A DNA stretch of 64,000 nt from an uncultured Alphaproteobacteria bacterium. Lineage in GTDB: Bacteria; Pseudomonadota; Alphaproteobacteria; Methylaequorales; Methylaequoraceae. Of the stretch, positions 17,301 through 46,417 are shown in pieces. The number at the start of each line of letters is the position of its first letter. Within the stretch, counting starts at the first letter, position 1. The position numbers and the translations under genes were made by a program. The notes under the pieces are model-generated. The model was not told the origin of the DNA, did not search any database, and worked only from the letters and a program-made list of their open reading frames with translations. The stretch is from the NCBI GenBank assembly GCA_902542925.1, contig CACBWF010000001.1, forward strand, positions 41,569-105,568. Direction: 5' to 3'.

Positions 17301-17312
17301 AAAAATGCATTA

Positions 17313-17328: not shown

Positions 17329-17348
17329 GTTGAGATTTAGTTAATGTT

Positions 17349-19126: not shown

Positions 19127-19299
19127 TAAACTCTTGCTATTTTGTTAAAATAAAACATTGAATTCTCGTTATAGCACAAAAGTTTAAAAATCTTCAAGAT
19201 GTACTAAACAAATTTTTTGTTTGTCGTTTAACTTAACATGGTTTTTGGAAAAAACTGTAAATGGAAATAGTTAATGATAACTTTTAAGGAGAAACTAAT

Positions 19300-20088: not shown

Positions 20089-20108
20089 CATAATTTAGGA
20101 GAATAAAT

Positions 20109-20894: not shown

Positions 20895-20921
20895 GGAAAC
20901 ACTACATATAGTATGTTTTAA

Positions 20922-20957
20922 GGGAAATGTGAGTAACTCACATTTCCCTTTTTTTTT
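20922..20957 (+). terminator. Rho-independent terminator after the second flagellin gene
   Basis: GGGAAATGTGAG-taac-CTCACATTTCCC hairpin followed by T9. Confidence 0.7.
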
Positions 20958-20972
20958 GGCATTGGATTTGCA
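20957..20972 (+). promoter_or_regulatory. Sigma-54 promoter (TGGCAT-N5-TTGCA) upstream of the 514-aa flagellin gene
   Basis: tggcattggatttgca lies ~40 nt upstream of the ATG at 21012. Confidence 0.55.
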
Positions 20973-21011
20973 GTTACTCTTTGTAAAAATTTATGTATAC
21001 AAAGAGAAATT

Positions 21012-22556
21012 ATGACAAAAATTAACACAACAATGGGGACAACAGGCGCGCTAAAAAGTCTCCTAAAAAATGAAAGAGAAATGCTTTCCGCAATGGAAAG
21101 AATTTCTTCAGGTAAAAGAATTAATCATGCAGGCGATGATGCTGCTGGTGCTGCTATTGCAGATAGAATGTCTGCTACTATTGGTGCATTAGATATGTCA
21201 ATTAGAAATGCATCTGATGTTTTATCAATGGCACAGGTTGCTGAAGGAGCGCTAGATGAAGCTTCTGCTGCATTACAAAGAATAAGAGAATTAGCAATTC
21301 AAGCTGCAACAGATATTATTAATGGTGAGCAAAAAGTTTATTTACAAACTGAAGTTGATCAATTACTTGATGAGATGGACCGTGTAACAAGAGATACAAC
21401 TTTTAATGAAATTGCTGTATTAGACGGAACTTTTGCAGACAGACGTTTTCAAATTGGTTCTCATGAAAGAGAAAAAGCAGTAATTTCTATTGCTAATATG
21501 AGAAATACTTCGATTGGTGCCTATCAAGCTACTACTGAAGGAACTAGTGGTCAAGCAAACCTAGCACAAAATGCTTTTCTTGCAGCGAGTAAATCAGCAG
21601 CAACTAGTAAAGTTACAACTTCCGATGCATTCACTATTACAGGTCTTTTAGGATCAAATGAATTAACACCAACGGCTGGTGAAACTGCAAAATCATTGAC
21701 TAACAGAATCAATGATTCTTTTGACAAAACAGGTGTTTCTGCAACGGCTTCTACTCAGGCTAGACTAAGAATGAAGACAAATTCAGCTGGTGATCACGTT
21801 GTTACCATGAAAGTTTATGGAAAAAACACAACAGCTCAGTCAATTTCTGCAACTGTAACTTTAACAACTGCATATACAGGAAATGATCTAACAGATCTTA
21901 GAGACCAGTTTAATTCTTTCAGTTCAGTAACAGGTATTACAGCGACTTTAAGTGCTGATAGTAACCAAATCGTTCTAGTACAAGATGAAGGTGAAGATAT
22001 TGTCATAGAAGATTTAGATTTTGCAAGTGTTACAGATGCAAATACATTAATGGAAGTAACAGGACTTAATTTTAAACAAGATACAACTGGAACATCAGTT
22101 GAAGTTCAGGATGCTAGCCAAACTAATGATAGTTTTAGATTAGGTGGAGAAATTACTTTCCATTCATCTCATACTTTTTCAATTGTTGGTAATGCAGATG
22201 GAGGATTATTTGAGTCGTCTGCAGCAACTTCAAGTTTAAATTCAGTTTCAACTATTGACATCAAAACAATGGCAGGTGCTGTTGATGCACTAAAGGTAGT
22301 TGACAGAGCATTAGATAGAGTTCACATGGAAAGAGCAAAATTTGGTGCCATTATGAGTAGAATGAATGTTGTTGTTGATAATTTAACTAATGTTTCTCAA
22401 AACCAAAGAGCTTCAAAAGCTAGAATTATGGATGCAAATTTCGCTTCAGAATCTTCAAGATTAGCGAAATCTCAAATTCTGCAGCAATCTGCATTAAATA
22501 TGATTGCCCAGGCTTCAAGAACAATGCAAAATGTATTAGTTTTATTCCAAGGATAA
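21012..22556 (+). CDS. Flagellin (canonical FliC/FlaA type, 514 aa)
   Basis: N-terminus ERISSGKRINHAGDDAAGAAIADRM. C-terminus KSQILQQSALNMIAQASRTMQNVLVLFQG. Confidence 0.9.
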   Translation: MTKINTTMGTTGALKSLLKNEREMLSAMERISSGKRINHAGDDAAGAAIADRMSATIGALDMSIRNASDVLSMAQVAEGALDEASAALQRIRELAIQAATDIINGEQKVYLQTEVDQLLDEMDRVTRDTTFNEIAVLDGTFADRRFQIGSHEREKAVISIANMRNTSIGAYQATTEGTSGQANLAQNAFLAASKSAATSKVTTSDAFTITGLLGSNELTPTAGETAKSLTNRINDSFDKTGVSATASTQARLRMKTNSAGDHVVTMKVYGKNTTAQSISATVTLTTAYTGNDLTDLRDQFNSFSSVTGITATLSADSNQIVLVQDEGEDIVIEDLDFASVTDANTLMEVTGLNFKQDTTGTSVEVQDASQTNDSFRLGGEITFHSSHTFSIVGNADGGLFESSAATSSLNSVSTIDIKTMAGAVDALKVVDRALDRVHMERAKFGAIMSRMNVVVDNLTNVSQNQRASKARIMDANFASESSRLAKSQILQQSALNMIAQASRTMQNVLVLFQG

Positions 22557-22597
22557 ATTTTATTAAAATAAGTCGTTTTTAATCAAAGGATAATTAT

Positions 22598-24277
22598 ATG
22601 GCCGAAACTGAAATTCTTTCCAAAATTGGCGTAGGTTCTGGTCTAGACACAACCGCATTGATTAAAGCACTCGTTGACGCAGATAGTGCAGCTGAAACCT
22701 CACAGTTAGAAAAAGATGAAGAAAAAACAAATGCTAAAATTTCAGCATTAGGAACTCTTAAATCTAATCTTAAACAATTTAATAATATCATTAAAAGTAT
22801 ACAAACCTCAGAATCATCTGGGTTTGTTGGAAACTCTTCAAATACCGCAACCGCAACTTTAACAGCTTCGGGTGACGCTGCTGGTGCAGACATAGATTCT
22901 TCATTGACAGTTACAACATTAGCATCCTCACATACATTGACCGGACCTGCATATAGTGCAACAACCTCAACAGTTGGTGCAGGAAGTATCTCAATAGCTT
23001 TTGGAACTTGGAGTGCAGACCCTACTTCCGGTGGGGGTCAGAGTCATACTGCTAATTCTCAATCAACGATTTCTGTGAATACTACTTCAAGTACAACTCT
23101 AAAGGATTTAAGAGATTTAATAAATAATGCTGCAACAGATTCAGATAGTGATGGAGAAAGAGATGTATTAGCATCAATAATTTATGACGGAACAAATTAC
23201 ATGCTTATGTTAAAAAGTGAGTCAGGAGCAAGTAATGAAATGAAGGTAACGGCTTCAAGTGATCTTGCTAATACTATCAGTGGTGTGTCGTATAATTACA
23301 ATGCAACAACTTCAAATATGACACAAAGAGTTTCAGGAATAAACTCTGCGTTCACAGTTGACGGGATTTCCATGACAAGATCTTCAAATGAGATTAAAGA
23401 TCTTTTTGATGGTTTTACTCTTGACTTATTAGCAACAAATTCTTCTGCAATCAGAGTTTCAAGCCAAGTTGATTTAACAAAGATAAAAGCATTAATGAAT
23501 GATTATGTTTTAACATATAACGAGGTTATGAGCTTGATTGATTCACTTACTACATCTGGAGATACAGCTCTTGGTGGAAGTAATGAGGCTGGCGCTTTGA
23601 ATGGCAACTCATTGTTGATGTCAATTAAATCTCAACTTCGAGGTTTATCAACGAAATCAATTGGCGGTTATGAAGGTGGTCCTTACTTTTTATCACAAAT
23701 GGGTATTAAAACCGAAAGAGATGGATCCTTGACTCTAAATCAATCAGATTTGGAAGAATCTTTCGATTTTAATCCGGAAATGGTACATGCTTTTTTTTCT
23801 GATCAATTGAAAACCGATACTAATGGAATTTCAGTAACTAGTTTTGAGCTTCTTAACACTAAACCAGGAACTTATGCTTTTGCAACTAATGGAAGCACTC
23901 ACACAATTGGTGGAGTAAACGCTACTAAAAATGGTACAAAATATAGTGTATCTTCAGGTGATCCAAATGGTTTAGTATTGAATGTAGCAAATGGAATAAC
24001 AAGTGGTAATGTGTATTATGGAAAAAGTTTTCTTTCACTTGCTCATGAAACAGTTGAAGTATTTACTAAATTCGATTCTGTGATTGATACCCAAGTTGAA
24101 AGCGGTAGATCTAGAATAAAGGATTTAGCAGAAAAAAGACTCAGATTAGAAGATAGAATTGAAAAGTTAACTCAAAGATATCAAAAACAGTATGCTAATA
24201 TGGAGTCAGCTGTTGCTGGTCTAAACGAAACTGGAAATATGCTCACAGCTCTTCTTGGTAATAATGATGATGATTAA
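22598..24277 (+). CDS. fliD: Flagellar filament cap protein FliD
   Basis: N-terminus IGVGSGLDTTALIKALVDADSAAETSQL...KISALGTLKSNL. 559 aa. Follows the flagellin gene. Confidence 0.85.
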   Translation: MAETEILSKIGVGSGLDTTALIKALVDADSAAETSQLEKDEEKTNAKISALGTLKSNLKQFNNIIKSIQTSESSGFVGNSSNTATATLTASGDAAGADIDSSLTVTTLASSHTLTGPAYSATTSTVGAGSISIAFGTWSADPTSGGGQSHTANSQSTISVNTTSSTTLKDLRDLINNAATDSDSDGERDVLASIIYDGTNYMLMLKSESGASNEMKVTASSDLANTISGVSYNYNATTSNMTQRVSGINSAFTVDGISMTRSSNEIKDLFDGFTLDLLATNSSAIRVSSQVDLTKIKALMNDYVLTYNEVMSLIDSLTTSGDTALGGSNEAGALNGNSLLMSIKSQLRGLSTKSIGGYEGGPYFLSQMGIKTERDGSLTLNQSDLEESFDFNPEMVHAFFSDQLKTDTNGISVTSFELLNTKPGTYAFATNGSTHTIGGVNATKNGTKYSVSSGDPNGLVLNVANGITSGNVYYGKSFLSLAHETVEVFTKFDSVIDTQVESGRSRIKDLAEKRLRLEDRIEKLTQRYQKQYANMESAVAGLNETGNMLTALLGNNDDD

Positions 24278-24284
24278 AAGAAAT

Positions 24285-25037
24285 CTACCATCCCATTATT
24301 AGATTAATAATTTTTTCTCTTTTTTCTTCTAAAAACTTTGTCGGATTAATTGCTCTATCTTTTGAAAAATCTTTCATGATATCATTCTTTGTTTTTGAAA
24401 ATCCGGAATGTATACCTGCCTCATTTCTATCTCGTGCAAAGTGTTCTAAGAAAGAAGTGTTAGATTGGATGAAGGGAACTTTTAATTGGGCTGGCCAATA
24501 ATAATCAAATCCGTATATAGTTTCAAAAAATGGATTATGATTTAAAAAATTTACCATTATTTCAACCATATTTCTATCATAACATTGGCTTACTCCAGGA
24601 CATGTTTTTCTCAAACTAAAATCTTTATTTTGTTCAATAATATTTTCTGATTTATTATGAAATACACTATTAAACAGCCCGATTGGAAATTTTTTTTTTT
24701 GTTTTTTAGAAATATTATAAAAATATCTAAGTTGATTAAGAAACTGTGGATCATGAATAACATCATTATCAGTAATATAAAGCAAATCAAAGTTCTTATA
24801 TATATAACAAAAATCTCTAAAGCATCTTGCTCTTGATCTTTCTATCCCTCCCCTAACTCTGAATCTCAAAATATTTTGAGAATATTTTTTGAGAAATTTT
24901 TCATTATATTCTGTTGATGCATCATCATAAATTAATAATTGAGAATTTTTATCCAATAATTGGGTTAAATTCTCTAGACAAAGCTTGGTAATATTTTTTC
25001 TATTATACGTTGATAAAGCAACAAGAATTTTTTCCAT
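24285..25037 (-). CDS. Glycosyltransferase family 2-like protein
   Basis: VALSTYNR...YDDAST pattern typical of GT-A/GT2 enzymes. Confidence 0.55.
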   Translation of the reverse strand: MEKILVALSTYNRKNITKLCLENLTQLLDKNSQLLIYDDASTEYNEKFLKKYSQNILRFRVRGGIERSRARCFRDFCYIYKNFDLLYITDNDVIHDPQFLNQLRYFYNISKKQKKKFPIGLFNSVFHNKSENIIEQNKDFSLRKTCPGVSQCYDRNMVEIMVNFLNHNPFFETIYGFDYYWPAQLKVPFIQSNTSFLEHFARDRNEAGIHSGFSKTKNDIMKDFSKDRAINPTKFLEEKREKIINLIMGW

Positions 25038-25091
25038 AAACTAAACATTTTTTTATATTAGACGTTTATAGATTTAGTATAATATTAATCT

Positions 25092-25451
25092 TTGAATAAA
25101 GGTATAGTTATGGAAATTTTTACTGAAAAAATGGTTAACCAGATTAAGATTATCGAAAAACTTCTTAATCAGCTTGAAAAAGATCTTAACCATTTAAATA
25201 AACCAAGTAAACTAGACAACGTCTCAGAACTAGTTGAAAGAGTTGGTAAAATTACAACTGTTTTAAAAACTACTCTTGATTTAGAAAAGGGTGGCGACAT
25301 TGCAAAAAATTTACTTCATCTTTATAATCACATTCAATATGCTGCTCAAAGAATCAAAGAACACGAAGATTATTCAGCAGTCAAGAGTGCTCATAAAGTA
25401 GTAAAAGAAATTAATGAAGGATGGTCTAAGCTTTCAACTGCTGCTGCTTAG
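25092..25451 (+). CDS. fliS: Flagellin-specific chaperone FliS
   Basis: LDLEKGGDIAKNLLHLYNHIQYAAQRIKEHEDYSAVKSAHKVVKEINEGW matches the FliS core. Confidence 0.8.
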   Translation: MNKGIVMEIFTEKMVNQIKIIEKLLNQLEKDLNHLNKPSKLDNVSELVERVGKITTVLKTTLDLEKGGDIAKNLLHLYNHIQYAAQRIKEHEDYSAVKSAHKVVKEINEGWSKLSTAAA

Positions 25452-27031
25452 CTTAAAAATTTTTTTACTTCATTATTTATATGTGACCAATCATTGAATT
25501 TTGATTGTCTAACCATTTTTACAGACTTATACCATGGGGTTTTGGAATCTTTCAAACCCCATCTCCAATCTGGTACTTTTGGAAGTAGTAATAATGTTTT
25601 CTGTCCAAGAGTGCCAGCTAAATGAACTAATGACGTATCTATTGTAATCACCTTATCCATTAAACTTAAAACCAAGGCTGTTTGCGAAAAGTCTTCAAGC
25701 TTATTATCAAGGACTTCTACATTTGAAAATTTTTTTAAAAATTTATGTTCCTCATTTGAAACACCTTTTTGTAATACAAAAAATTTACAATCATTATTTT
25801 TGAATATTTCTGAAAATTTTTCGATATGAATTGATCTATTTAGGTGCCTTTTATGTAGAGGGTTCCCAGACCATGAAACTCCAATATTCAATTTACTTTT
25901 ATCAATCCTTTTAGTTAAAAACTTATTAAAATTTACATTAAAACTCTTAAGCCTTTCGACATCAACAATAAGTGGATCAATAATTTTTTTGCTATTTTCC
26001 CAAAATAGATAGGGTAAGCTCATCATAAATATTCGATAGTCAAATGAAGTTTCATCAACATCATCAAATTTGTCTGAAATATTTACACTATCCAGTTCTG
26101 GACAAGATTTAAAAAAATTAATTGTCGATTTGTGTGCAGCAAAACTTACTTTATAATTTTTCTCAAGAAATGATTTTAAGAATCTTGATGCCATAAAATC
26201 GTCGCCATAGCCTTGTTCGCGATGTATTACAATTTTTAGATTTTTTTCTTTAAGATTCTTTTTAGTAAGTTCTGGATATCCATCTCCACCATATTTTACT
26301 AAAAATTTTTCTTTATCTCTATGTTTTTCGTATAATTCAAGGCCTTTATTATAATTACCTTGCAACAATTCAAGTAGAGATAAGTTGAAATTAGCAAAAA
26401 AATTATCTTCTTTTTCTAATGTTTTTTTATAAAATTCTTTTGCTTTTTTAAATTGAGATGTTTCAAAGAAATAAACACCTAAGCCTAAGTGAGCTAGAGC
26501 ATTTTCTTTATCTAAATGCATACAAGTAATAAAACATTCTTTAGCCATTTCAGGTTCTTGTGTTGCAATATAGGCTATACCTAATTGGGCCCAATTGTTT
26601 GGCATTTGTGGTAATTTATGTACACAGTCTGATAAAATATCTTTAGCTTTATACACATCTGCATAATCATGCATTAACATACATGCATAATCAAATGCAA
26701 TCATGTAGCATTCTGGACAATATTGATAACCTTTTTCTAAGATTAAAAATCGTTCTTCTTTCATTTTTTCATGTTCGTAAATCATAGAAAGTTGTAAATA
26801 AGCTTCTTCAAACGATTTGTCATTTTCTAATATTTTCTTAAGTTTTTCTATTGCATCATCATAATTACAAAATTCAATATCATCTAATGCTAAGACGTAA
26901 TTAGCATATGAACTATCCTTTTTTTTATTCAGAATTTCTTCAGCTAGATCTCTTGCTTTTGTAAGATGATTTGTGGAGTCCGGATTCGATATAAATTCTT
27001 TTAAGTTATTTTCTAAGGTTTCAAGATTCAT
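25448..27031 (-). CDS. TPR-repeat protein with C-terminal GT9-like (heptosyltransferase-fold) glycosyltransferase domain; FlmG-like flagellin glycosyltransferase candidate
   Basis: N-terminal TPR repeats. C-terminus NIGVSWSGNPLHKRHL...ITIDTSLVHLAGTLGQKTLLLLPKVPDWRWG resembles the GT9 DSGxxHLAxALG region. Confidence 0.55.
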   Translation of the reverse strand: MNLETLENNLKEFISNPDSTNHLTKARDLAEEILNKKKDSSYANYVLALDDIEFCNYDDAIEKLKKILENDKSFEEAYLQLSMIYEHEKMKEERFLILEKGYQYCPECYMIAFDYACMLMHDYADVYKAKDILSDCVHKLPQMPNNWAQLGIAYIATQEPEMAKECFITCMHLDKENALAHLGLGVYFFETSQFKKAKEFYKKTLEKEDNFFANFNLSLLELLQGNYNKGLELYEKHRDKEKFLVKYGGDGYPELTKKNLKEKNLKIVIHREQGYGDDFMASRFLKSFLEKNYKVSFAAHKSTINFFKSCPELDSVNISDKFDDVDETSFDYRIFMMSLPYLFWENSKKIIDPLIVDVERLKSFNVNFNKFLTKRIDKSKLNIGVSWSGNPLHKRHLNRSIHIEKFSEIFKNNDCKFFVLQKGVSNEEHKFLKKFSNVEVLDNKLEDFSQTALVLSLMDKVITIDTSLVHLAGTLGQKTLLLLPKVPDWRWGLKDSKTPWYKSVKMVRQSKFNDWSHINNEVKKFLS

Positions 27032-27139
27032 TTTTAAACTTTCTAAATTGGTTTACTAATCCCAAAATACTTCAATATTTATGCCAATTATTAGTTTTTT
27101 TTGGCATAAATATTGAAACAATACATTTAAGGTTTTTTA

Positions 27140-28042
27140 ATGATAAGTGTAATAATACCAACATATAATGGCATAGAAAAAGGGCTTGAAAGGTCGATAA
27201 GATCTGTATTAATGCTAAAAAACATAGATGAAGTTATTATAGGAATTGATGGTTCTGATGATACAAGTAATGAATTATGTAATGAACTACAAAAAAAAGA
27301 TAAAAGAATAAAGTACTTTGAAAATAAAAAAAATATTGGATGGGGAAAAACAGCTGCCATTTGTATATCAAAGGTAGGATGTAATCGAACTATAATTCAT
27401 AGTGATGATGATTGGATGCTTCCAGAAATGAATAATCTCATTGAATTTTCTTTAAAAAATAATTTAGATCTAGCATATAGTAAGTATGCTATTGGGAATG
27501 ATCAGACAAAAAAGATCAATATTTTTAGTAATCCTACATGGGAAAAAAAAAATTATATTGGTGAAAAAGATGAGTTTCATGAACTTTTATTACATGACTG
27601 TTATATCGGAAGATCTATAATAAAAACCGAAATTTACAAAAACACTTTTAATCTTAAAGCATTAGAAAACTTAAATAGAGAATTTGGAGAAGAATTTACA
27701 GCAATCGACTATAATTTATTTTTAGACTTATCTTCACAAGATTCTAAATTTGGGTATTTAAACCAAATTACAAATATATGGACCCAACGTGCAAACCAAG
27801 AAACTGGAATGTTTTATAATACCTCGGGAAAACATTTAGGCGAATCTTCTTATCTTTTTAATAAATATTACGATGAAAAAAAACACAGGAAAGATTGGGA
27901 TTTTTTAGGAAGTGTATTTAATCGAGTTAAATATTTATATACGTTTGCAAAAAAAAAAAATAAAAAAATTAATCCGATTTATGAAAATCATTTTAAAGTA
28001 TTTTCAAAAAAAATTAGTTCTTTAAGAGGTTCAAATGTTTAA
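27140..28042 (+). CDS. Glycosyltransferase family 2
   Basis: N-terminus MISVIIPTYNG...IIGIDGSDD. Confidence 0.6.
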   Translation: MISVIIPTYNGIEKGLERSIRSVLMLKNIDEVIIGIDGSDDTSNELCNELQKKDKRIKYFENKKNIGWGKTAAICISKVGCNRTIIHSDDDWMLPEMNNLIEFSLKNNLDLAYSKYAIGNDQTKKINIFSNPTWEKKNYIGEKDEFHELLLHDCYIGRSIIKTEIYKNTFNLKALENLNREFGEEFTAIDYNLFLDLSSQDSKFGYLNQITNIWTQRANQETGMFYNTSGKHLGESSYLFNKYYDEKKHRKDWDFLGSVFNRVKYLYTFAKKKNKKINPIYENHFKVFSKKISSLRGSNV

Positions 28043-29114
28043 AAAAAATTGTCATTTACTTATTACAGGTGGTACAGGGTCATTTGGAAAAGCAATGTTA
28101 GAAAAAATATTATTCAACAAAAATATTTCAAAAATTTCAATACTTAGTAGAGATGAAAAAAAACAAGATGATTTGAGAAAACAATTTAATAACAAAAAGT
28201 TAAATTTTATTTTATGTGACATAAGAGACAGAGAAAATGTTTTTTCTTCAATAAATGATGTTGATTATATTTTTCATGCGGCTGCTTTAAAGCAAGTACC
28301 AAGTTGTGAATTTAATCCAATGGAAGCAGTAAAAACAAACATTTTAGGTGCATTAAATGTAATAGACGCTTCAATAAGAAATAATGTAAAAAAAATTGTG
28401 CTATTAAGTACAGATAAAGCTGCCTATCCAATTAACACTCTAGGGTGTAGTAAAATGTTAATGGAAAAAATTATGTTTGCTAAAACCACAGAAAAGTCAA
28501 AAAACTCAAAAACAATCATTTGTGCAATTAGATATGGAAATGTGCTCTTTTCAAGAGGTTCTGTTGTTCCACTTTTTTTAAAACAACTTAGTGACAATAA
28601 ACCATTAACGATTACAAATCCAAGTATGACAAGATTTTTAATTTCACTATCAGAAGCAATAGATTTGGTTTTATATGCTCTATCACATGGTAAAAATGGT
28701 GATTTATTCATCAGAAAATCAAAAGCCGCTACAATTTTAAATATAGCTAAAGCATGTAGTTTAATGTTTAACAAAGAGTTGAATATAAATTACATAGGAA
28801 TAAGGGAAGGTGAAAAAATGGATGAAACACTTGCAACTAGAGAAGAAGTTGCTAAGTCAGAAGATAGAAATACTTATTTAAGAATACCTCATGAACAATC
28901 TAAAAATTTTAATAAATATTTTACGGAAGGAACTATAACTAAAGAAATTTTTCCATTCACATCTAAAAATACAAAACAACTTTCAATCGAAGAAATTATA
29001 GGTATATTTAAGGCAATTCCTGAAATACAACAAATTTTAAATGTAAATAAACATATGATAAATCTTCCAGTGAATGTAAGCGAAAGTTTTACTAATTCGC
29101 TCCTTATCAATTAG
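28035..29114 (+). CDS. UDP-GlcNAc 4,6-dehydratase of the PseB/LegB/CapD (FlaA1) family
   Basis: N-terminus LLITGGTGSFGK; polysaccharide-biosynthesis SDR family. Confidence 0.7.
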   Translation: MFKKNCHLLITGGTGSFGKAMLEKILFNKNISKISILSRDEKKQDDLRKQFNNKKLNFILCDIRDRENVFSSINDVDYIFHAAALKQVPSCEFNPMEAVKTNILGALNVIDASIRNNVKKIVLLSTDKAAYPINTLGCSKMLMEKIMFAKTTEKSKNSKTIICAIRYGNVLFSRGSVVPLFLKQLSDNKPLTITNPSMTRFLISLSEAIDLVLYALSHGKNGDLFIRKSKAATILNIAKACSLMFNKELNINYIGIREGEKMDETLATREEVAKSEDRNTYLRIPHEQSKNFNKYFTEGTITKEIFPFTSKNTKQLSIEEIIGIFKAIPEIQQILNVNKHMINLPVNVSESFTNSLLIN

Positions 29115-29874
29115 TATTTAATACATCTCCGGGAGATAGGTATTTTTTTTCTTTAGATTTTAAATAATAAGCTTGTTCATAAGGTGGAAAATAACATGCC
29201 CTTACAATTCTATCAATTTTCTTACAATTCCATTTTGGATCAATAATTCTAAGTTTTTCAATTGAATCTTTACTATAAAATTTACCCTGTTTTTTAATTT
29301 TCTTTTTCGGAATGTTATTTTTAATAATTGCTAAAAAAAGTTTTATCAAAATTTCTTCTGCGCATTTTAAAGATTTTTTGTATAAACTTTTAGCGGTTTC
29401 AGATTTACTAATTTTAGTTGAAGATTCAAAAGCTATATCTCCCTCATCAACTTGCTCTGAAACCCAATGAATTGTTGAAGTATACTTTTTATCATTATTT
29501 GCTATCGCAAAATTAATGGAATTATAGCCTTTATAATTTGGAAGTTTTGCATTGTGAAGATTTAGGCATTTATTACCAACTAGTTCTAATATTTTATTTG
29601 ATAAAATCCATTTATGCTGGATTGAAATTAAATAATCTGGAGATAAACTTTTAATTTTTAATGAGATGAGTTTTTCGTTACGTTTTTCATTAGATATAAA
29701 AAAAGTATTTTTAAGGGTATTATTTTTTAAAAATTTTTTTTTTACTTTTGAGTTATAGAAATTTTTATTAGATACAAATCCCAATATCTCTATTTCTTTT
29801 TTAAAATATTTTTTGATTATTCTTAGAGCTATCTCAGTTGTTTTTTTATCGCCAAGTAAGATTATTTTTTTCAT
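29107..29874 (-). CDS. Sugar N-formyltransferase (formyl_trans_N family)
   Basis: Motif NLHNAKLPNYKG corresponds to the HxSLLPxxxG formyltransferase signature. Confidence 0.6.
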   Translation of the reverse strand: MKKIILLGDKKTTEIALRIIKKYFKKEIEILGFVSNKNFYNSKVKKKFLKNNTLKNTFFISNEKRNEKLISLKIKSLSPDYLISIQHKWILSNKILELVGNKCLNLHNAKLPNYKGYNSINFAIANNDKKYTSTIHWVSEQVDEGDIAFESSTKISKSETAKSLYKKSLKCAEEILIKLFLAIIKNNIPKKKIKKQGKFYSKDSIEKLRIIDPKWNCKKIDRIVRACYFPPYEQAYYLKSKEKKYLSPGDVLNTN

Positions 29875-29880
29875 AGGAAA

Positions 29881-30294
29881 TTAATTAATTTCTTTAGAAA
29901 TAGTATCGGGATCATTTGGATCAAATTCTTTTGATGCATAAGCAACCATAATTGCCTCTTCTTTATTTTTATTAATTATTGTATGAGCTGTTCCTGGACC
30001 AACATAAACAAGTTGAGGGCGTTTTGATTTTAATATTTTTTTTATTTTTTTGCCGTTTGCTTTCATTAATAAAGTAACCGTACCTGCAACACAACAAAAC
30101 CATTCTCCTTTTCTTTCGTGATAATGATCCCCTCTCCTAAAGCCAGGCATAACGCTATAGACATATATCTGTCCACCATTAGGTATTTTTTCTGACTTAA
30201 ATCTTAGTGCTTCAAACAGAGCACCTCTACTATCTGAGTATAATTTTAAGTCTTTAATTTTATAATCTATATTTTCTGTAAAGTGCATATCCAT
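29881..30294 (-). CDS. Cupin-fold WxcM/FdtA/QdtA-like sugar 3,4-ketoisomerase
   Basis: 137 aa. GDHYHERKGEWFCCVAGT resembles FdtA-type ketoisomerases. Confidence 0.5.
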   Translation of the reverse strand: MDMHFTENIDYKIKDLKLYSDSRGALFEALRFKSEKIPNGGQIYVYSVMPGFRRGDHYHERKGEWFCCVAGTVTLLMKANGKKIKKILKSKRPQLVYVGPGTAHTIINKNKEEAIMVAYASKEFDPNDPDTISKEIN

Positions 30295-30299: not shown

Positions 30300-31442
30300 T
30301 TACCCTACCAAATTCATGGAATTAGCACCCCAAACTTCTTTTTTAATGATTTTTGACATACCTAAAATAATTCTTACAATTTTTTTTGAAACTTCTTTTT
30401 GTATGTAGGCTTCGGGTGGTGAAGAGAAATTAAAATTTATTGGTTTTTTGCAAATTATTCCTAACATCCTTAAAACATCATCTTGGTCTAAACCTGTGAT
30501 TGGACAATATCCTGCTTCAATTGACTCTTGCTTTTCAGTAGACTTTCTAATTGCTATTGCAGGAAATTTTAGTACAGCTGAATCTTCATGAATGGTTCCA
30601 CTATCAGAAATTACACATTTCGACTCTTTTTGTAGTTTTATAAAATCAACTAAACCAAAAGGTTTGTGCCATATTATTTTTTGGTTTGATTTTTTAATTA
30701 GACCTGAATTAATTAATTTAGTTTTTGTTCTTGGATGAGTGCTCACTACAATTGGAATTTTATATTTTTTTATGATAGCATTAAAAGTTTCTACAAGTTT
30801 CTTCAAAGAGTCTACACTTTCAACATTTTCCTCTCTGTGGATACTTGCTGTAAAAAATTGATTGGTATTGAGACCAAGTTTATTTAAAATTTTACTTTTT
30901 TCAAACTTGAAACCTAAATCGTTATATACTTCAATAATTGGACTCCCAACCACATAAATATTTTTTGGGTGAATACCTTCTCTTAATAGATTTCTTCTGC
31001 TTTGTTCGCTATAAGCAATATTAACATCGCTAGTATGATCAATAATCCTTCTATTTAGTTCCTCAGGTACTTCGTTATCATAAGAGCGGTCTCCAGCTTC
31101 AATGTGAAAAATTGGAATTTTTTTTCTCTTTGCTGCAATTGCACTTAGACCTGAATTTGTGTCACCTAGAATCAAAACTGCATCAGGATTTTCAACGTCC
31201 ATTACTTCCCCAGTACTGCTTATAATTTTTGCTATTTGATCTTGAATGTTTTGAGATTTTGATTTTAAGTTATAATTTGGTAGTCTTAATCCTAAATCTT
31301 TAAAAAAGATACGGTTAAGATTATAGTCATAATTTTGTCCAGTATGTACCAATATATGATTACAATGTTCGTCTAATTCTTTTATTATTTTTGCTAAACG
31401 AATAATTTCTGGTCTTGTACCCAGTATTGTCATTATTTTCAT
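30300..31442 (-). CDS. UDP-N-acetylglucosamine 2-epimerase family protein (WecB/NeuC/LegG type)
   Basis: N-terminus MKIMTILGTRPEIIRLAKII is characteristic of the 2-epimerase family. Confidence 0.7.
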   Translation of the reverse strand: MKIMTILGTRPEIIRLAKIIKELDEHCNHILVHTGQNYDYNLNRIFFKDLGLRLPNYNLKSKSQNIQDQIAKIISSTGEVMDVENPDAVLILGDTNSGLSAIAAKRKKIPIFHIEAGDRSYDNEVPEELNRRIIDHTSDVNIAYSEQSRRNLLREGIHPKNIYVVGSPIIEVYNDLGFKFEKSKILNKLGLNTNQFFTASIHREENVESVDSLKKLVETFNAIIKKYKIPIVVSTHPRTKTKLINSGLIKKSNQKIIWHKPFGLVDFIKLQKESKCVISDSGTIHEDSAVLKFPAIAIRKSTEKQESIEAGYCPITGLDQDDVLRMLGIICKKPINFNFSSPPEAYIQKEVSKKIVRIILGMSKIIKKEVWGANSMNLVG

Positions 31443-32560
31443 GACACAGCCTCTTTTACTTTTTCAATTATAAAATTTTGGGTTTGTTTACTGACCCACC
31501 ATCCACAAGGAATTGCGATTTCTGACTTATCAAACCAGTCTGTATTTGGAAGCTGAAGTTTTTTATTAGACTTGAACATAGAATATTTATCATTTCTAGC
31601 ATGAATTTGTCCGCTTTCTATATTACACCTGTTGAGAGCTTTAATTAATTTATCTCTGTTTTTGACAAGTATTGTATAACCCCAATAAGTTTGAAAATCA
31701 TTTGGGTTTCTTTCAAGAATTTTAATTCCTTTGGTTTTTCTAAATGCTTCATCATATCTTCTTCCATTTTGATGAAATTTATCAAGAATCCAGTCAATAT
31801 ATTTCATTTGAGACAAACCAATTGATGCAGCAATATCATTCATATTTCCTTTAAATCCCCATTCTGGAATATCTTCTTTCCATACATTTCTCCCTTCTCT
31901 ATTATCCCTATCTATTCCAAACCATTTCAATTTTTTAGCTTTTATGTAATCTTTTTTGTTTCCGCATAAAAGAGCACCCCCGTCTCCTGTTGTAATGTGT
32001 TTTATTGCTTGGAAAGAAAAACAAATAAAATCTCCAAAAGATCCAATTTTTTTATTATTTTTTTTTGCTCCGAATGCATGAGCAGCATCTTCAACAATTC
32101 TTATTTTATTATTATATCTCTTTAGAGCATATATATCGTCTAAGTTGGCTGGTGATCCTTCTTTATGGAGTATATAAATGGCTCTTGTCTTTTTAGTTAT
32201 TAGTGGCCTAATATTTTCAGCTGTGACCATTCCTGTTTTTCTACAAATATCTGCCCAAATTGGTTTTGCTCCAAGTGATACTATAGGAATATTCCCAGCA
32301 ATACATGTCAGAGGCGTCGTAATTACTTCGGTATTTGGTCCAACACCGGCTATTTTATAAGCCATTGTAATTGCCATTGTACATGAGTTTGTCAATACTA
32401 CATGTGGATTTTTAAGATATTTAGATATTTTTCTACTAAAAGCATTTACTTTTTTACCTTCAGCTAGAAAACCGCTGTAAAGTGTATTTTTAACATTTTT
32501 TTCTGCTTCTTTTGGAACAAAAACTTTAAATAAAGGTATTCTTTTTTTTTGTTTAATCAT
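31439..32560 (-). CDS. DegT/DnrJ/EryC1/StrS family PLP-dependent sugar aminotransferase
   Basis: LTNSCTMAITMA...FSFQAIKHITTGDGGAL, with the Lys in the PLP-binding context. Confidence 0.75.
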   Translation of the reverse strand: MIKQKKRIPLFKVFVPKEAEKNVKNTLYSGFLAEGKKVNAFSRKISKYLKNPHVVLTNSCTMAITMAYKIAGVGPNTEVITTPLTCIAGNIPIVSLGAKPIWADICRKTGMVTAENIRPLITKKTRAIYILHKEGSPANLDDIYALKRYNNKIRIVEDAAHAFGAKKNNKKIGSFGDFICFSFQAIKHITTGDGGALLCGNKKDYIKAKKLKWFGIDRDNREGRNVWKEDIPEWGFKGNMNDIAASIGLSQMKYIDWILDKFHQNGRRYDEAFRKTKGIKILERNPNDFQTYWGYTILVKNRDKLIKALNRCNIESGQIHARNDKYSMFKSNKKLQLPNTDWFDKSEIAIPCGWWVSKQTQNFIIEKVKEAVS

Positions 32561-32671: not shown

Positions 32672-33448
32672 GTGAGTAATACGCTATCATCATTCCCAGT
32701 CCCAATTTTTTCTCTGAAAAAATCTGAGAGGAATATTAGAGAAGCAATCTCTAGGATCTCTACTGGTATAAATGTACTTGGTGGAAATGATGCAGCTAGA
32801 CATGCTTTGGGGACGACTTTGAAAGCAGATGGGAAGAGTTTTGAGGCAGCCTCTAGTAGCATTGAGAACTCATTAAGTTTATTAAGTCTAGTAGAAGAAG
32901 CTTTATTTGAACTTAACTCTCTTGCAACAAGACTCAAAGAAACCGGTAATCAAGCTTCACTTTCTACAAATACTTCAGAGGATACAGCGGCATTAAATGC
33001 TGAAGCAGTCAATATTAGTGATACAATTGATTCAATAGTTTCATCCCTTACCTTCAATAATATTAATGTCTTAGATACGTCTGCAAAAAGTTTTACTATA
33101 GGTATAAATGATGTGGGAACGACAGCTACAATGCAAACTACTACAGGTATCGCAGCAACAAGCATAACAGGTGCTACAAATGCGAATACTTCTGCTGCAA
33201 CTACAATCGGAGAAATAACACGTTCACTAGGCTCTGTAGCGGGAAGTATACAATCTTTTAATGGTTATCTTAATATTGCCGAATCTTCTTCAGCTGCTCT
33301 TATAGCTCAAGCTGCAAAATTACAAGATACAGATTTTGCCCAAGAGACTGCAAGATTAGCAAAAAATGCTATATTAAAAAATTACAGTTTAGCTATGGTT
33401 GCCCAGGTTCAAAATGCAGACGAAGATCAACTTAAATTATTAGCTTAG
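32672..33448 (+). CDS. Flagellin (short, divergent, 258 aa; GTG start)
   Basis: N-terminus EAISRISTGINVLGGNDAARHALG. C-terminus KLQDTDFAQETARLAKNAILKNYSLAMVAQVQNA. RBS AGAGG. Confidence 0.7.
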   Translation: MSNTLSSFPVPIFSLKKSERNIREAISRISTGINVLGGNDAARHALGTTLKADGKSFEAASSSIENSLSLLSLVEEALFELNSLATRLKETGNQASLSTNTSEDTAALNAEAVNISDTIDSIVSSLTFNNINVLDTSAKSFTIGINDVGTTATMQTTTGIAATSITGATNANTSAATTIGEITRSLGSVAGSIQSFNGYLNIAESSSAALIAQAAKLQDTDFAQETARLAKNAILKNYSLAMVAQVQNADEDQLKLLA

Positions 33449-33508: not shown

Positions 33509-33940
33509 ATGAAAAAAAATGAATATAAAACACAAGTTGAGACAAGTAAAACTCTTCTAAAAAAAGAAACAAACTTAAATAACGTAGTTCGAAATGATAT
33601 ACCAAAATATGAAATTATAAAGCAGCTAATTGTAGGTCTGGAAAGTGAATTTGTAAATTTAAAAAAAATAGTTTCGGTTGACTTTGAAGTAAATGACGAA
33701 GCAGTAGAAAAAGCTGAAAAAATATCAAAAATTGCTTTTGCGTTGCAGAGTTGTCTTAATGTTGATAAGGGTGAGGAAATAGCTGTAAATTTAACGTGGT
33801 TATACAGATTTGTTAGATATAGTTGTAAACGAATTATTGATAATGAAGATTTAACATATGTTAAACCAGCACACCTAGTAGCAAGAAATCTTAAAGAGGG
33901 TTGGTTAAATATGCCCGAAGAATCAAGACAAATAAATTAA
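33509..33940 (+). CDS. fliS: Flagellin-specific chaperone FliS (second paralog)
   Basis: LNVDKGEEIAVNLTWLYRFVRYSCKRIIDNEDLTYVKPAHLVARNLKEGW. Confidence 0.7.
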   Translation: MKKNEYKTQVETSKTLLKKETNLNNVVRNDIPKYEIIKQLIVGLESEFVNLKKIVSVDFEVNDEAVEKAEKISKIAFALQSCLNVDKGEEIAVNLTWLYRFVRYSCKRIIDNEDLTYVKPAHLVARNLKEGWLNMPEESRQIN

Positions 33941-34177: not shown

Positions 34178-35692
34178 TTGCTTCCTATAATTGCGGGTTT
34201 AGTCGTTGGATTTCTTAGATCAATGGAGCTAGGTAATCGCTGGCATGGACCTCCAGATGTTATTCTTTCAGCTCATTCCAGCAAAGAAAAACTTAGTATA
34301 AAATCTGGTTTTGTGGCCTCTTTGTCAGCTGTGATATCAATTTCAGCTGGTGGTTCTGTTGGTCAGTATGGGCCATTAGTTCACTTCGGAGCAACATTAG
34401 GTGCAAATATAAAGGAGTTTTTTAAAACTTTTGGTGATTATCAAGTTTTTATTGGTGCAGGGGTGGCAGCGGCAATATCTTCTGGTTTTGGAGCTCCCAT
34501 TGCTGGTTTAATTTTTTCTAGGGAAGTAATTTTGAGACATCAATCTCTAGCATCTTTTGCTCCAATTTTAGTATCTTCAATGATTGCATATTTAATCTCA
34601 AAATTCTTGTTTGGGATAGATCCTATTCTTGAGACAAATTTTGGAGGTATTTCTGATATTAAAGAATTTCCAGCGTTGGTTGCCACAGGTGTAGTTGCTG
34701 GATTTGTCTCAGTTATTTATATGAATGGATTAACGCACCCAAAATTTTTTCCTAATACAAATTATATTAAACCTTATTTTCAACCCGCAATTGCAGCATT
34801 AATTTGTACTATTGTTGGAATTTTTATTCCTGAAGCTATAGGGTTGGGAACTGAAACAATAAAAGATCTTTTGGTAGCCAAAATTAGTTGGGAGAATGCG
34901 CTTATTTTTCTAATTGCTAAACTCTTTTTAACTATAATTTGTATTAGATTAGGTTTAATTGGAGGTGTTTTTGCTCCGGCTCTTTTCCTTGGAGCATGTA
35001 CTGGATTAGTTATAGGTGTATTTATAAAAGTAATATTACCAGATACGAATGTAGCATTATATGCAGTTTCTGCTATGGCAGCAATTGGGAGTTGTGTTAT
35101 AGGGGGCCCAGTTGCAAATATGATGATTGTCTTTGAGTTAACAACAGATTATCAGGCAACATTAGCTGCAGGAATAAGTATTGTATTTGCTTCTATTATT
35201 TCCTTCAAATTAATAGGCCAATCTGTATTTGATAGAGTTTTATTTAATAGAAATATTGACCTCAAAATTGGAAGAGACCATTTGCTTTTAAATGAAAAAA
35301 TTATTGACGAAATAAAACAAAATAAATTCTGTAAGATTACAAAAGATATTCCAATTAAAAAAGCAATAGATATTATGGCGAGTAAAAATTATAGTGAGGC
35401 CTATTTCATTGATGAACAAGGAAGACTGAGTAAAAAAATTGAAATAGCCAAACTAATCAAAATAGTTAATAAAAACTTACCTTTATCTAAATTGAAAAGG
35501 AATAAATTTTTAAAAATTTATAATTATGAAACTGTACTTAAAACAATTAATGTTTGTAAAGATTTTGTTGGGGAATCAATTCCAATAGTTGACAAAGATG
35601 AAAGAATTGTAGGAGTGATTTCAGAAAGCGATTTATTTAAAACATTTCTAGAAGCATCTGAAACTGTACATAAACTTGAAGCTAAAGATTAG
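34178..35692 (+). CDS. ClC family chloride channel with C-terminal CBS domain pair (annotated TTG start; true N-terminus probably upstream)
   Basis: GGSVGQYGP and GVFAPALFLG match ClC selectivity motifs. Frame is open upstream to 33941 and encodes a further transmembrane helix. Confidence 0.65.
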   Translation: MLPIIAGLVVGFLRSMELGNRWHGPPDVILSAHSSKEKLSIKSGFVASLSAVISISAGGSVGQYGPLVHFGATLGANIKEFFKTFGDYQVFIGAGVAAAISSGFGAPIAGLIFSREVILRHQSLASFAPILVSSMIAYLISKFLFGIDPILETNFGGISDIKEFPALVATGVVAGFVSVIYMNGLTHPKFFPNTNYIKPYFQPAIAALICTIVGIFIPEAIGLGTETIKDLLVAKISWENALIFLIAKLFLTIICIRLGLIGGVFAPALFLGACTGLVIGVFIKVILPDTNVALYAVSAMAAIGSCVIGGPVANMMIVFELTTDYQATLAAGISIVFASIISFKLIGQSVFDRVLFNRNIDLKIGRDHLLLNEKIIDEIKQNKFCKITKDIPIKKAIDIMASKNYSEAYFIDEQGRLSKKIEIAKLIKIVNKNLPLSKLKRNKFLKIYNYETVLKTINVCKDFVGESIPIVDKDERIVGVISESDLFKTFLEASETVHKLEAKD

Positions 35693-36030
35693 ACAAATCT
35701 CATAATTGAGTATTTAATTTCACTACTTTTATCAGGTATTGTTGAAATATGAGCATACTTTGTTGCCAATTCATTATGGTGATAAACTGGTGAAAATGAA
35801 ATTCTAGCTTTAAAAAAAGCATCCGCAGTAGAGCCATTAGAAGGAGCTAGAAAAGGATGATGACGTTGTGCAAAGTTTTTTTCGCTATATGGTTTTGTCT
35901 TATCAACAGAACCAAGATTAAAAATTCTTCTTTGTGGATTAACAAGTGGCATACCATTTGCAATTTCTTCATTAAATGAAAAAATTATTTGATTGGGAAT
36001 ATTGGTTAAACTGTTGAAGACTTGATCCAT
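35689..36030 (-). CDS. Hypothetical protein
   Basis: ORF only. Confidence 0.25.
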   Translation of the reverse strand: MDQVFNSLTNIPNQIIFSFNEEIANGMPLVNPQRRIFNLGSVDKTKPYSEKNFAQRHHPFLAPSNGSTADAFFKARISFSPVYHHNELATKYAHISTIPDKSSEIKYSIMRFV

Positions 36031-36462
36031 TTTAAGAATTTAACAAAAAAAATTAAAAAATTCAATAGAGTTATAAATATGCACTTTAATAAAGCAAAAA
36101 ATATCTATAAAAAAACAGATTTATCAGATGTTAAAAATCATGACAACGTTAAACTTGTTAAAAAAGTCGTTCAAGAGCTAATTAGATCAATGAATATAGT
36201 TTCAGAAAATATAAATACTAAAAATTACCAAATAAAAAATAAACATTTTAGTAAAAGTCTCGTTTTAATATATACACTGCAAACAAGTTTAGATTTTGAA
36301 AAAGCTGAAAAATTTTGTGCTCACTTATTCCAAATCTACGAATTTTGTAGAAAGAAGCTTATAGACGGTATGACAAAAAGAACAGCAGAAGAAATCAATA
36401 AAGCCATTTTTTGGCTAGAAGAAATATTTTTTGGTAATGTAAGGGCAGAAAATCGTGGTTAG
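36022..36462 (+). CDS. FliS-like flagellar chaperone (third, divergent paralog)
   Basis: LQTSLDFEKAEKFCAHLFQIYEFCRKKLIDG aligns with LQSCLNVDKGEEIAVNLTWLYRFVRYSCKRIID of the FliS at 33509. Confidence 0.45.
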   Translation: MIHFKNLTKKIKKFNRVINMHFNKAKNIYKKTDLSDVKNHDNVKLVKKVVQELIRSMNIVSENINTKNYQIKNKHFSKSLVLIYTLQTSLDFEKAEKFCAHLFQIYEFCRKKLIDGMTKRTAEEINKAIFWLEEIFFGNVRAENRG

Positions 36463-36757
36463 TAGTTCTTCATTAGATAATCAATTTCTAACATTGCAAA
36501 AAATTTCAGAAAATATCGCATCTTTAATTAAAAAAGAAGATTTTGTTAAAGTTTCTCATCTGGATAAGATAAGAAAAAAAATTCTCAGTGATATTAAAAA
36601 AAAAGATCTGATAATTAATAATAATAAAAACTCTTTATTAAAACTAATTTCGAAAAATGATGAACTGATTTATGAAATTGAAAACAAAAAGAAGGTACTT
36701 TCTAAAGAATTTAATCAGAATATGAGATGTCAAAAAGAATATGGCAGGCACTTATAA
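36455..36757 (+). CDS. Small helical protein, possible FliT/FlgN-type flagellar chaperone
   Basis: 100 aa, predicted coiled-coil. Overlaps the stop of the FliS-like gene, echoing the fliS-fliT arrangement. Confidence 0.2.
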   Translation: MVSSSSLDNQFLTLQKISENIASLIKKEDFVKVSHLDKIRKKILSDIKKKDLIINNNKNSLLKLISKNDELIYEIENKKKVLSKEFNQNMRCQKEYGRHL

Positions 36758-36769
36758 TAAAGTCCTAAC

Positions 36770-37615: not shown

Positions 37616-37643
37616 GGCTTAAAATTTGCTAAATTAATAGTCT

Positions 37644-39344: not shown

Positions 39345-39347
39345 GTC

Positions 39348-40031: not shown

Positions 40032-40087
40032 GAAAATATAAAATCTAATACTTTGAGTGAATAGAAAAATAAAGACTTTTATACATA

Positions 40088-46410: not shown

Positions 46411-46417
46411 ATATACT

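Follow-up and report, generated by a model that had tools for sequence, protein, structure and literature searches.

A predicted UDP-GlcNAc-based pathway to a formamido sugar, with a free-standing CapF-type cupin, in the flagellar island of an uncultured alphaproteobacterium

UDP-L-FucNAc, the activated form of N-acetyl-L-fucosamine (UDP, uridine diphosphate), is made out of UDP-GlcNAc (N-acetylglucosamine linked to UDP) by CapE/F/G in Staphylococcus aureus, WbjB/C/D in Pseudomonas aeruginosa O11 and FnlA/B/C in Escherichia coli. CapE carries out C4/C6 dehydration together with C5 epimerization, and CapG/WbjD epimerizes C2 (PMC3699295, PMC5774825). CapF/WbjC carries out C3 epimerization followed by C4 reduction (PMC3699295, PMC5774825), and one of these papers reports the C3-epimerase activity of CapF with reference to Miyafusa 2012 (PMC3699295). 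Here we analyze a 64,000-nucleotide stretch of DNA from an uncultured marine alphaproteobacterium (contig CACBWF010000001.1, positions 41,569 to 105,568; called the window in the following), in which a free-standing cupin gene and an N-formyltransferase gene lie in a module of genes resembling those of this route. Both have in common the start from UDP-GlcNAc (in the window a predicted one), a CapE-type dehydratase/5-epimerase having Met or Leu where a short-chain dehydrogenase/reductase (SDR) has its Tyr, the cupin family and a CapG-type 2-epimerase. The cupin of the window, however, is a free-standing protein of 137 amino acids, whereas in CapF it is the C-terminal domain of an SDR reductase, and in place of C4 reduction the window has a DegT-family aminotransferase and an N-formyltransferase. 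Since these two enzymes replace the C4 reduction, the predicted product is a 4-formamido (diamino) sugar and not L-FucNAc.

Two further described systems are close enough to be compared. The pathways to 3-formamido-3,6-dideoxyhexoses carried on deoxythymidine diphosphate (dTDP), with the ketoisomerases FdtA, QdtA, WlaRB or HCAN_0198, a C3 aminotransferase and the formyltransferases WlaRD, QdtF or HCAN_0200, use the same classes of cupin, DegT aminotransferase and folate-dependent N-formyltransferase, and their cupins share the fold and the HxH motif with the cupin of the window. They differ in the carrier nucleotide and the starting sugar. The cupin of the window has a CapE-type dehydratase beside it together with an epimerase of the CapG type, and the linkage to RmlA/RmlB is missing. 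CapF, AtmS13 and WbkC give higher sequence scores than the enzymes of these pathways. The other system is the WekD/E/F/G and WeiO/P/Q/S module of E. coli, which gives an N-formylated diamino L-sugar from UDP-GlcNAc and shares with the window an FnlA-like dehydratase (about 50% identity), a CalS13/AtmS13-like DegT protein (37%) and an N-formyltransferase. The pathway of this module, which belongs to E. coli O119/O109 and the sugars L-RhaNAc3NFo and L-RhaNAc3NAc, has been proposed but not demonstrated (PMC7685785).

From the comparisons below we favour, on balance, a five-enzyme variant of the UDP-L-FucNAc route that would lead to UDP-2-acetamido-4-formamido-2,4,6-trideoxy-L-hexose, probably for use on flagellin.

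The cupin, the formyltransferase and their neighbours

The two genes and the genes around them are the following.

29881-30294, minus strand: stand-alone CapF/FnlB-type cupin, 137 amino acids; proposed C3-epimerase of UDP-2-acetamido-2,6-dideoxy-L-hex-4-ulose, alternatively a 3,4-ketoisomerase
29107-29874, minus strand: sugar N-formyltransferase (predicted), 255 amino acids; the formyltransferase domain is N-terminal and is followed by a small part like that of WbkC at the C-terminus
30300-31442, minus strand: CapG/FnlC-type non-hydrolysing UDP-2-acetamido-sugar 2-epimerase, 380 amino acids (PF02350, 281.6 bits)
31439-32560, minus strand: DegT-family sugar aminotransferase, 373 amino acids (PF01041, 269.8 bits); proposed to aminate C4 of a UDP-4-keto sugar
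28035-29114, plus strand: CapE/FnlA-type UDP-GlcNAc 4,6-dehydratase/5-epimerase, 359 amino acids (Polysacc_synt_2, PF02719, 322 bits)
27140-28042, plus strand: family-2 glycosyltransferase (GT2), 300 amino acids (PF00535, 68.7 bits); candidate transferase for the module sugar

The minus-strand genes follow each other in the order aminotransferase, epimerase, cupin and formyltransferase with gaps of -4, 5 and 6 bp: the stop of the aminotransferase gene overlaps the start of the epimerase gene by 4 bp, and the open reading frames (ORFs) of the cupin and the formyltransferase are 6 bp apart. Converging on this operon is the plus-strand pair of GT2 and dehydratase genes, which overlap by 8 bp, and the 3′ ends of the dehydratase and formyltransferase genes overlap by 8 bp as well. 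An initial annotation of the window had recognized the formyltransferase by the motif NLHNAKLPNYKG next to a cupin and had connected both with a set of RmlA, aminotransferase and RmlB genes at 44384-47509. All of these ORFs are found where they had been placed, the motif forming residues 105-116 of the formyltransferase, and the NCBIfam matches confirm the presence of the Rml set. The profile matches of the two ORFs and of the Rml set are strong, and they are not chance ORFs.

The cupin had been described as FdtA/WxcM-like and as a 3,4-ketoisomerase, but it lies nearer to another family. In the Pfam search it scores 75.6 bits with Polysacc_synt_C (PF14667), which models the C-terminal domain of CapF/WbjC/FnlB, against 50.7 bits with the FdtA/WxcM model (PF05523, cut-off 23). 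Its top match in the PDB is Cap5F, which scores 42 bits when the single sequence is the query and 51 bits when a profile of the 28-member family is used, whereas FdtA-type proteins reach 26-37 bits and the family profile gives 37 and 33 bits for FdtA and QdtA. With an AlphaFold2 model of the cupin (pLDDT 87) the first Foldseek match is CapF (E 1.1e-8), and the FDPxxPDT tail of the cupin resembles CapF. All four comparisons, with Pfam models, with PDB sequences by single query and by profile, and by fold, thus place the cupin nearer to the cupin domain of CapF/FnlB than to FdtA or QdtA. It aligns to positions 250-367 of the 372 positions of the NCBIfam WbcJ reductase model (NF047837; 55.7 bits, cut-off 500), and unlike the FnlB/CapF fusion the 137-amino-acid ORF has no SDR part. 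The automatic database names given to this cupin family are "RmlC-like", "WxcM-like" and "hexul-4-ose reductase". Membership in the WbuC family was rejected (20.8 bits, cut-off 42).

CapF binds zinc at an HxH/E/H site. H57, H59, E64 and H104 of the window cupin, which do not vary in 28 homologues, fall on H, H, E and H in the alignment with Cap5F. The pair H57/H59 also aligns with the HxH of FdtA-type proteins (His49/His51 in FdtA), and the motif HxH...E...H is common to CapF and FdtA. The catalytic histidines expected of a ketoisomerase are therefore present, but they do not discriminate, as CapF has the same HxH. By analogy we propose that the C3-epimerase role reported for CapF may be carried over to the stand-alone protein.

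As the initial annotation had supposed, the formyltransferase appears to be of the sugar N-formyltransferase type and not an Fmt or PurN. It matches Formyl_trans_N (PF00551) with 80.3 bits (E 1.9e-22), and no match to the Fmt C-terminal domain (PF02911) was obtained in the Pfam search. The best solved homologue in a PDB search is WbkC, the N-formyltransferase of GDP-perosamine in Brucella (GDP, guanosine diphosphate), with 74.5 bits over residues 57-248; the scores of other entries are 52.5 bits for QdtF, 49 for Fmt, 48.5 for ArnA, about 40 each for VioF and WbtJ, 38 for PurN and 33 for PseJ. The small C-terminal subdomain and the Asn-His-Asp triad are shared with WbkC, the triad (Asn105, His107 and Asp143) being at least 95% conserved among 40 homologues; sequence identity to WbkC, however, is low, and the predicted nucleotide is UDP here and GDP in WbkC. 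No NCBIfam equivalog cut-off is reached (ArnA 87.7 bits, cut-off 777; PRK06988 85.3, cut-off 316; PRK07579 (NF005755) 58.9, cut-off 238), and the fmt and PurN equivalog scores are far under their cut-offs. The assignment to the sugar type follows from WbkC as best homologue, from the missing Fmt C-terminal domain and from the conserved triad.

Among solved structures, CapE/FnlA, CapF and CapG are the best matches of their counterparts in the window. The dehydratase scores 353 bits with FnlA (4j2o) and 347 with CapE against 217 with FlaA1/PseB, and at the position of the catalytic Tyr of FlaA1, which is Met in CapE, it has Leu (PMC3699295). The epimerase passes the wecB model TIGR00236 (246.2 bits, cut-off 210.15; NeuC 88.5 bits), and its best PDB match is CapG (7ya2, 348.5 bits), E. 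coli WecB reaching 94 bits. Three of the proteins in this neighbourhood, having CapE/FnlA, CapF and CapG as nearest solved relatives, therefore correspond to steps of the UDP-L-FucNAc pathway. For the DegT aminotransferase the PDB scores are 196, 165 and 152 bits with the C4 enzymes AtmS13, CalS13 and ArnB, and 85, 76, 76 and 70 bits with the C3 enzymes QdtB, WlaRG, DesV and WbpE; its top NCBIfam matches are PseC, LegC and ArnB, all under their cut-offs. Each enzyme thus has as its nearest characterized relative either a member of the L-FucNAc pathway or a C4 aminotransferase, and this supports a UDP-GlcNAc module. We consider it very probable that the genes form such a UDP-GlcNAc/L-series module and not a dTDP module.

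The genes with which the cupin and the formyltransferase had been combined form a second sugar module.

44384-47509, plus strand: RmlA-like protein, WecE-type C4 aminotransferase and RmlB (dTDP module), assigned by NCBIfam scores

The RmlA-like protein stays under the cut-off of TIGR01207 (292.8 bits, cut-off 360.65) and RmlB exceeds that of TIGR01181 (372.8 bits, cut-off 365.1). The aminotransferase (45277-46410) passes both WecE models, NF008687 with 479.8 bits (cut-off 375) and TIGR02379 with 436.4 bits (cut-off 434.85). As these curated cut-offs are exceeded, C4 of the RmlB product would be aminated directly and a 3,4-ketoisomerase would not be required. The dTDP module is thus predicted to yield a dTDP-4-amino-4,6-dideoxyhexose independently of the cupin, and its aminotransferase does not qualify as the C3 partner of the cupin for which it had been taken. 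Likewise, the joining of cupin and formyltransferase to the Rml set for a dTDP-3-formamido-3,6-dideoxyhexose has to be given up, since the operon partners of the two genes are UDP-GlcNAc enzymes. The dTDP module stands in a second block of glycan-tailoring genes (39348-50064). Several methyltransferases, one of them TylF-like, are encoded there along with a sulfotransferase, a haem-oxygenase-like/CADD protein and the ATP-grasp ligase at 41595-42833; two ORFs, of 486 and 261 amino acids, are unassigned. This content suggests a heavily modified second sugar.

Distribution of the cassette

Loci in other genomes came from two sources, the exact look-up of proteins and a scan that took one genome for each species, and all of their ORFs were scored against the proteins of the window. 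A profile search with the cupin gave at least 181 clusters, of which at least 120 are stand-alone homologues of 130-155 amino acids, the family having a length of about 138 amino acids. The stand-alone cupin occurs in about 20 independent genomes, its hosts being Alphaproteobacteria, Rhodocyclales (Betaproteobacteria), Sphingomonadales, Bacteroidota, Verrucomicrobiales, Phycisphaerae/Planctomycetota, and Saccharibacteria and Yanofskybacteria of the candidate phyla radiation. Wherever the contig allows, every stand-alone cupin is accompanied by an orthologue of the aminotransferase (43-68% identity) and by a CapE-type dehydratase; a CapG-type epimerase is also present in all cupin loci except those of Bacteroidales (L029-L031). 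All dehydratases of the cassette have Met or Leu instead of the PseB Tyr. In seven loci (L032-L038) the cupin is the C-terminal part of an SDR protein of about 370-390 amino acids, a true FnlB, and stands together with FnlA and the epimerase; no such aminotransferase is present in these FnlB-type loci. The simplest reading is that in the cassette the aminotransferase has taken over from the reductase domain. RmlA/RmlB lie within 8 kb of the stand-alone cupin in one of the about 20 genomes (L026), which again speaks against a partnership of the cupin with the Rml-linked aminotransferase. In full-text literature searches we found no description of a cassette of FnlA, aminotransferase and cupin.

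In at least five separate lineages (L002/L015, L009, L010, L028 and L050/L051) the cassette has a homologue of the formyltransferase beside it, with 38-52% identity. Other polysaccharide clusters contain more distant homologues, at about 40% identity. Because other cassette loci have acetyltransferase-like genes instead of a formyltransferase, the distribution suggests that the N-acyl group differs among lineages. Between the dehydratase and the formyltransferase genes, three loci contain a conserved protein of 302 amino acids without a Pfam match (L010 2235-3143, L050 6093-7001, L051 2149-3057), and L002 has an unassigned ORF of 239 amino acids at this place; the 302-amino-acid protein might either add a component to the pathway or be a transferase.

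Proposed pathway and alternatives

The chemistry is inferred throughout from homology and gene context, and no published characterization of the cassette was found. In the first step the CapE/FnlA-like enzyme (28035-29114) would dehydrate UDP-GlcNAc at C4/C6 and invert C5 to give UDP-2-acetamido-2,6-dideoxy-beta-L-arabino-hex-4-ulose. The stand-alone cupin (29881-30294) would then epimerize C3, which adjoins the 4-keto group, so that the 4-ulose of L-lyxo configuration results, and in the third step the DegT aminotransferase (31439-32560) would aminate C4, which the SDR domain of FnlB/CapF reduces instead. The formyltransferase (29107-29874) would use N10-formyl-tetrahydrofolate to formylate the new amine by means of Asn105, His107 and Asp143, and the CapG-like epimerase (30300-31442) would invert C2; the proposal fixes neither the order of these two last steps nor the configuration at C4. 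The product would have a residue mass of 214.10 Da. That the formyltransferase acts on the amine of its own UDP-GlcNAc module appears likely to us.

Several points weigh against this pathway. As far as full-text literature searches go, a 2,4-diamino-2,4,6-trideoxy-L-hexose is reported in no glycan, and therefore the product would be without chemical precedent; the same searches returned nothing relevant for 2-acetamido-4-formamido sugars, the sole L-series trideoxy match being 2,3-diacetamido-L-mannose. The best NCBIfam match of the dehydratase is FnlA (TIGR04130, 377 bits), yet this is under the cut-off of 730. WekE, from the E. coli O119 cluster that serves a 3-amino L-sugar, shows 37% identity to the DegT aminotransferase. 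The cut-off of PF05523, the FdtA model of Pfam, is exceeded by the cupin as well, and Y44 and Y46, which are invariant in the stand-alone family, align with Tyr in an FdtA-type protein but not in CapF. The Foldseek E-values of CapF, ChmJ, FdtA, RmlC and QdtA span about one order of magnitude; epimerase and ketoisomerase are not separable by the fold search, and the residue set HxH/E/H is common to both families. Regiochemistry (C4 versus C3) and stereochemistry are inferred only, and the second amino-sugar module of the window is a possible source of substrate for the formyltransferase.

C3 epimerization and 3,4-ketoisomerization both start with the deprotonation of C3 adjoining a 4-keto group. 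Therefore the cupin could also be a 3,4-ketoisomerase acting on the UDP-L-4-hexulose of the CapE-type enzyme within the same UDP-GlcNAc/L-series module, and the DegT aminotransferase would then aminate C3. The product would be UDP-2-acetamido-3-formamido-2,3,6-trideoxy-L-hexose (L-RhaNAc3NFo/L-QuiNAc3NFo type), with C2 inverted by the CapG-like enzyme. We regard this as rather unlikely, although it is the alternative that survives best. The match with PF05523, the HxH and Y44/Y46 in common with FdtA-type proteins, and FdtA and QdtA as near-equal structural matches are consistent with it, but the cupin is consistently nearer to CapF than to FdtA. The full-text literature searches gave nothing relevant on UDP-sugar ketoisomerases. 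L-RhaNAc3NFo does exist in E. coli O119 (PMC7685785), and WekE of this cluster is the 37% identical relative of the window aminotransferase; both proteins, however, are nearest to the C4 enzymes CalS13 and AtmS13, while it is WekF that ranks C3 enzymes higher. In the E. coli clusters of O119, O109 and O182 an FnlA-like dehydratase and a pair of DegT proteins stand with a transferase for formyl or acetyl groups, but among their ORFs (L046, L049 and L047, respectively) there is no homologue of the cupin and no CapG-type epimerase, and WekD is 23% identical to the window formyltransferase. From the missing cupin and epimerase, the two DegT proteins and the low identity of the formyltransferases we conclude that the cassette of the window is not the L-RhaNAc3N module of E. 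coli. Chemistry at C4 gives the simplest account of the clean exchange, from locus to locus, of the SDR domain for an aminotransferase. We therefore lean towards C3 epimerization combined with C4 amination, which seems to us somewhat the better supported prediction than ketoisomerization combined with C3 amination.

The E. coli clusters gave some further observations. In L046 (4789-8903, O119), L047 (3326-8803, O182) and L049 (4204-8792, O109) the two DegT genes stand beside the FnlA-like dehydratase gene in a module without a ketoisomerase-type cupin. A DNA search of E. coli with the stretch from formyltransferase over cupin and epimerase to aminotransferase matched only epimerase genes of the fnlC/qnlB type in ordinary FnlABC/QnlAB clusters; a search with the dehydratase gene, after which six clusters were inspected, found O119, O109 and O182, in which the cupin is not shared. 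A stand-alone cupin of the WbuC family lies at the end of the E. coli L-FucNAc, L-QuiNAc and L-RhaNAc clusters, including those with a cupin-less reductase:

L042 11317-11721: WbuC cupin
L043 11250-11654: WbuC cupin
L044 10862-11329: WbuC cupin
L045 13238-13735: WbuC cupin
L048 12147-12551: WbuC cupin

The formyltransferase might instead serve the dTDP-4-amino-4,6-dideoxyhexose (Fuc4N/Qui4N) predicted from the genes at 44384-47509, yielding Qui4NFo or Fuc4NFo as with VioF/WbtJ, whereas the cupin module would have its amine acylated in another way or left free. Although the dTDP module is predicted to make a 4-amino sugar and no dedicated N-acyltransferase was identified for it in the window, the flanking ATP-grasp ligase and unassigned ORFs could acylate this amine. 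The formyltransferase does match NF005755, the model of the dTDP-4-amino-4,6-dideoxyglucose formyltransferase (58.9 bits), as well as VioF and WbtJ (about 40 bits), but these scores lie far under the cut-off of 238 and under the scores of WbkC, ArnA and Fmt. The formyltransferase gene is separated by 6 bp from the cupin gene in one operon, and homologues of it accompany the cupin cassette also in lineages without RmlA/RmlB nearby. We hold this use of the formyltransferase to be improbable.

The model of the initial annotation, in which an FdtA/QdtA-type ketoisomerase acts on dTDP-4-keto-6-deoxyglucose to give dTDP-Qui3NFo or dTDP-Fuc3NFo, appears very improbable. The cupin scores above the cut-off of PF05523 and both RmlA and RmlB are in the window, but the cupin lies 14 kb away from them within the UDP-GlcNAc operon, such a neighbourhood recurs in a single one of the about 20 genomes, and by the curated cut-offs the Rml-linked aminotransferase is a C4 enzyme of the WecE type. 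The characterized trio of Helicobacter canadensis is among the PDB matches (7n67, 7n63, 7n7a), yet with 26, 98 and 33 bits it is weak compared with CapF (42), AtmS13 (196) and WbkC (74). A nonulosonic acid route, e.g., to a 7-N-formyl sugar resembling pseudaminic acid with the dehydratase as PseB, the aminotransferase as PseC and a PseJ-like formyltransferase (PseJ is among its PDB matches with 33 bits), can hardly be credited and was rejected, because among the ORFs of at least 110 amino acids in the 64-kb window there is no match to a NeuB/PseI synthase, a CMP-transferase (CTP_transf_3; CMP, cytidine monophosphate) or PseG, and because PseB, the second-best NCBIfam match of the dehydratase (307 bits, cut-off 407.75), and PseC, the best of the aminotransferase (209.5 bits, cut-off 423.5), both stay under the equivalog cut-offs, the dehydratase has Leu in place of the PseB Tyr, the epimerase is of the non-hydrolysing CapG type and a cupin would not be needed, even though proteins of the FlmG-like layout do transfer pseudaminic acid (Pse) or legionaminic acid (Leg) to flagellin (PMC7591256).

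Flagellar setting and significance

The proposed UDP-GlcNAc module lies within a flagellar island, for the window encodes four flagellins and three paralogues of FliS together with FlgG/H/I, FlgK, FlgL and FliD. The features that bear on the use of the sugar are the following.

32672-33448, plus strand: short flagellin, 258 amino acids, with Flagellin_N and Flagellin_C; likely glycosylation target
25448-27031, minus strand: protein of 527 amino acids with tetratricopeptide repeats (TPR) and a GT-B (GT9-like) part, weak match to Glyco_transf_9; candidate flagellin glycosyltransferase

The flagellin gene is divergent from the aminotransferase operon with a gap of 111 bp. This neighbourhood of flagellin and module is also found in the relatives L005-L007 and L052, the position of GT2 beside the dehydratase is kept in L005 and L052, and in L052, as here, flagellins, FliS and FliD surround the module. 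A second TPR protein with a glycosyltransferase part (37644-39344, plus strand) is a paralogue of that at 25448-27031, the two being 30% identical over about 360 amino acids of the glycosyltransferase part. FlmG represents an architecture of flagellin glycosyltransferases (PMC7591256), and from their FlmG-like domain layout we consider both TPR proteins as candidate flagellin glycosyltransferases. Given the flagellar island, the flagellin at a distance of 111 bp, the same layout in L052 and the candidate transferases, flagellin is probably the acceptor of the module sugar, and the adjacent GT2 and/or the TPR proteins would carry out the transfer. Of the N-formylated amino-dideoxyhexose put forward in the initial annotation, a formylated amino-deoxyhexose made by genes next to flagellin genes is thus still a reasonable prediction, whereas its identity as a dTDP-linked 3-formamido sugar is not.

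Some other features of the island should be mentioned. FlgK (12231-17300, plus strand) seems very long with 1689 amino acids; FlgK_D1 lies close to its N-terminus, the central part bears a Flagellin_IN motif, and there is a rod C-terminal domain. The flagellin paralogues at 19300-22556 and 32672-33448 comprise three proteins of about 260 amino acids and one of 514 amino acids, in addition to FlgL, and each of the FliS paralogues (25092-25451, 33509-33940 and 36022-36462) may serve a different flagellin. A gene lying between those of FliS (34178-35692, plus strand) encodes a CLC chloride channel that includes a CBS domain, and it has the same place in the marine relative L052 (1184-2617). The G+C content is 34-39% over the flagellar structural genes (10001-24000) and 24-28% over the glycosylation genes (24001-30000 and 36001-54000); this contrast could reflect differing selective or compositional histories within the island.

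Taken as a whole, the comparison corrects a dTDP pathway call that was plausible in itself. Labels such as "WxcM/FdtA-like" or "RmlC-like" on cupins of about 138 amino acids can mask a distinct clade which is tied to UDP-GlcNAc chemistry. The cassette can be seen as a natural experiment in which a reductase domain has been swapped for an aminotransferase, and it predicts a class of sugars for which no report was found. Tentatively, and with considerable doubt, we extend the proposal to all of its hosts: the widespread cassette of CapE-type dehydratase, free CapF-type cupin, C4 aminotransferase and CapG-type epimerase might make UDP-2-acetamido-4-acylamino-2,4,6-trideoxy-L-hexoses, the N-formyl form being put on flagellin in the window by the FlmG-like TPR proteins and/or GT2. 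If true, FlmG-type O-glycosylation of flagellin would be extended beyond CMP-nonulosonic acid donors. For the organism itself the analysis suggests that the flagellum of an abundant uncultured marine alphaproteobacterium may carry a formylated diamino sugar (expected mass +214.10 Da), which would bear on its recognition by phages and grazers.

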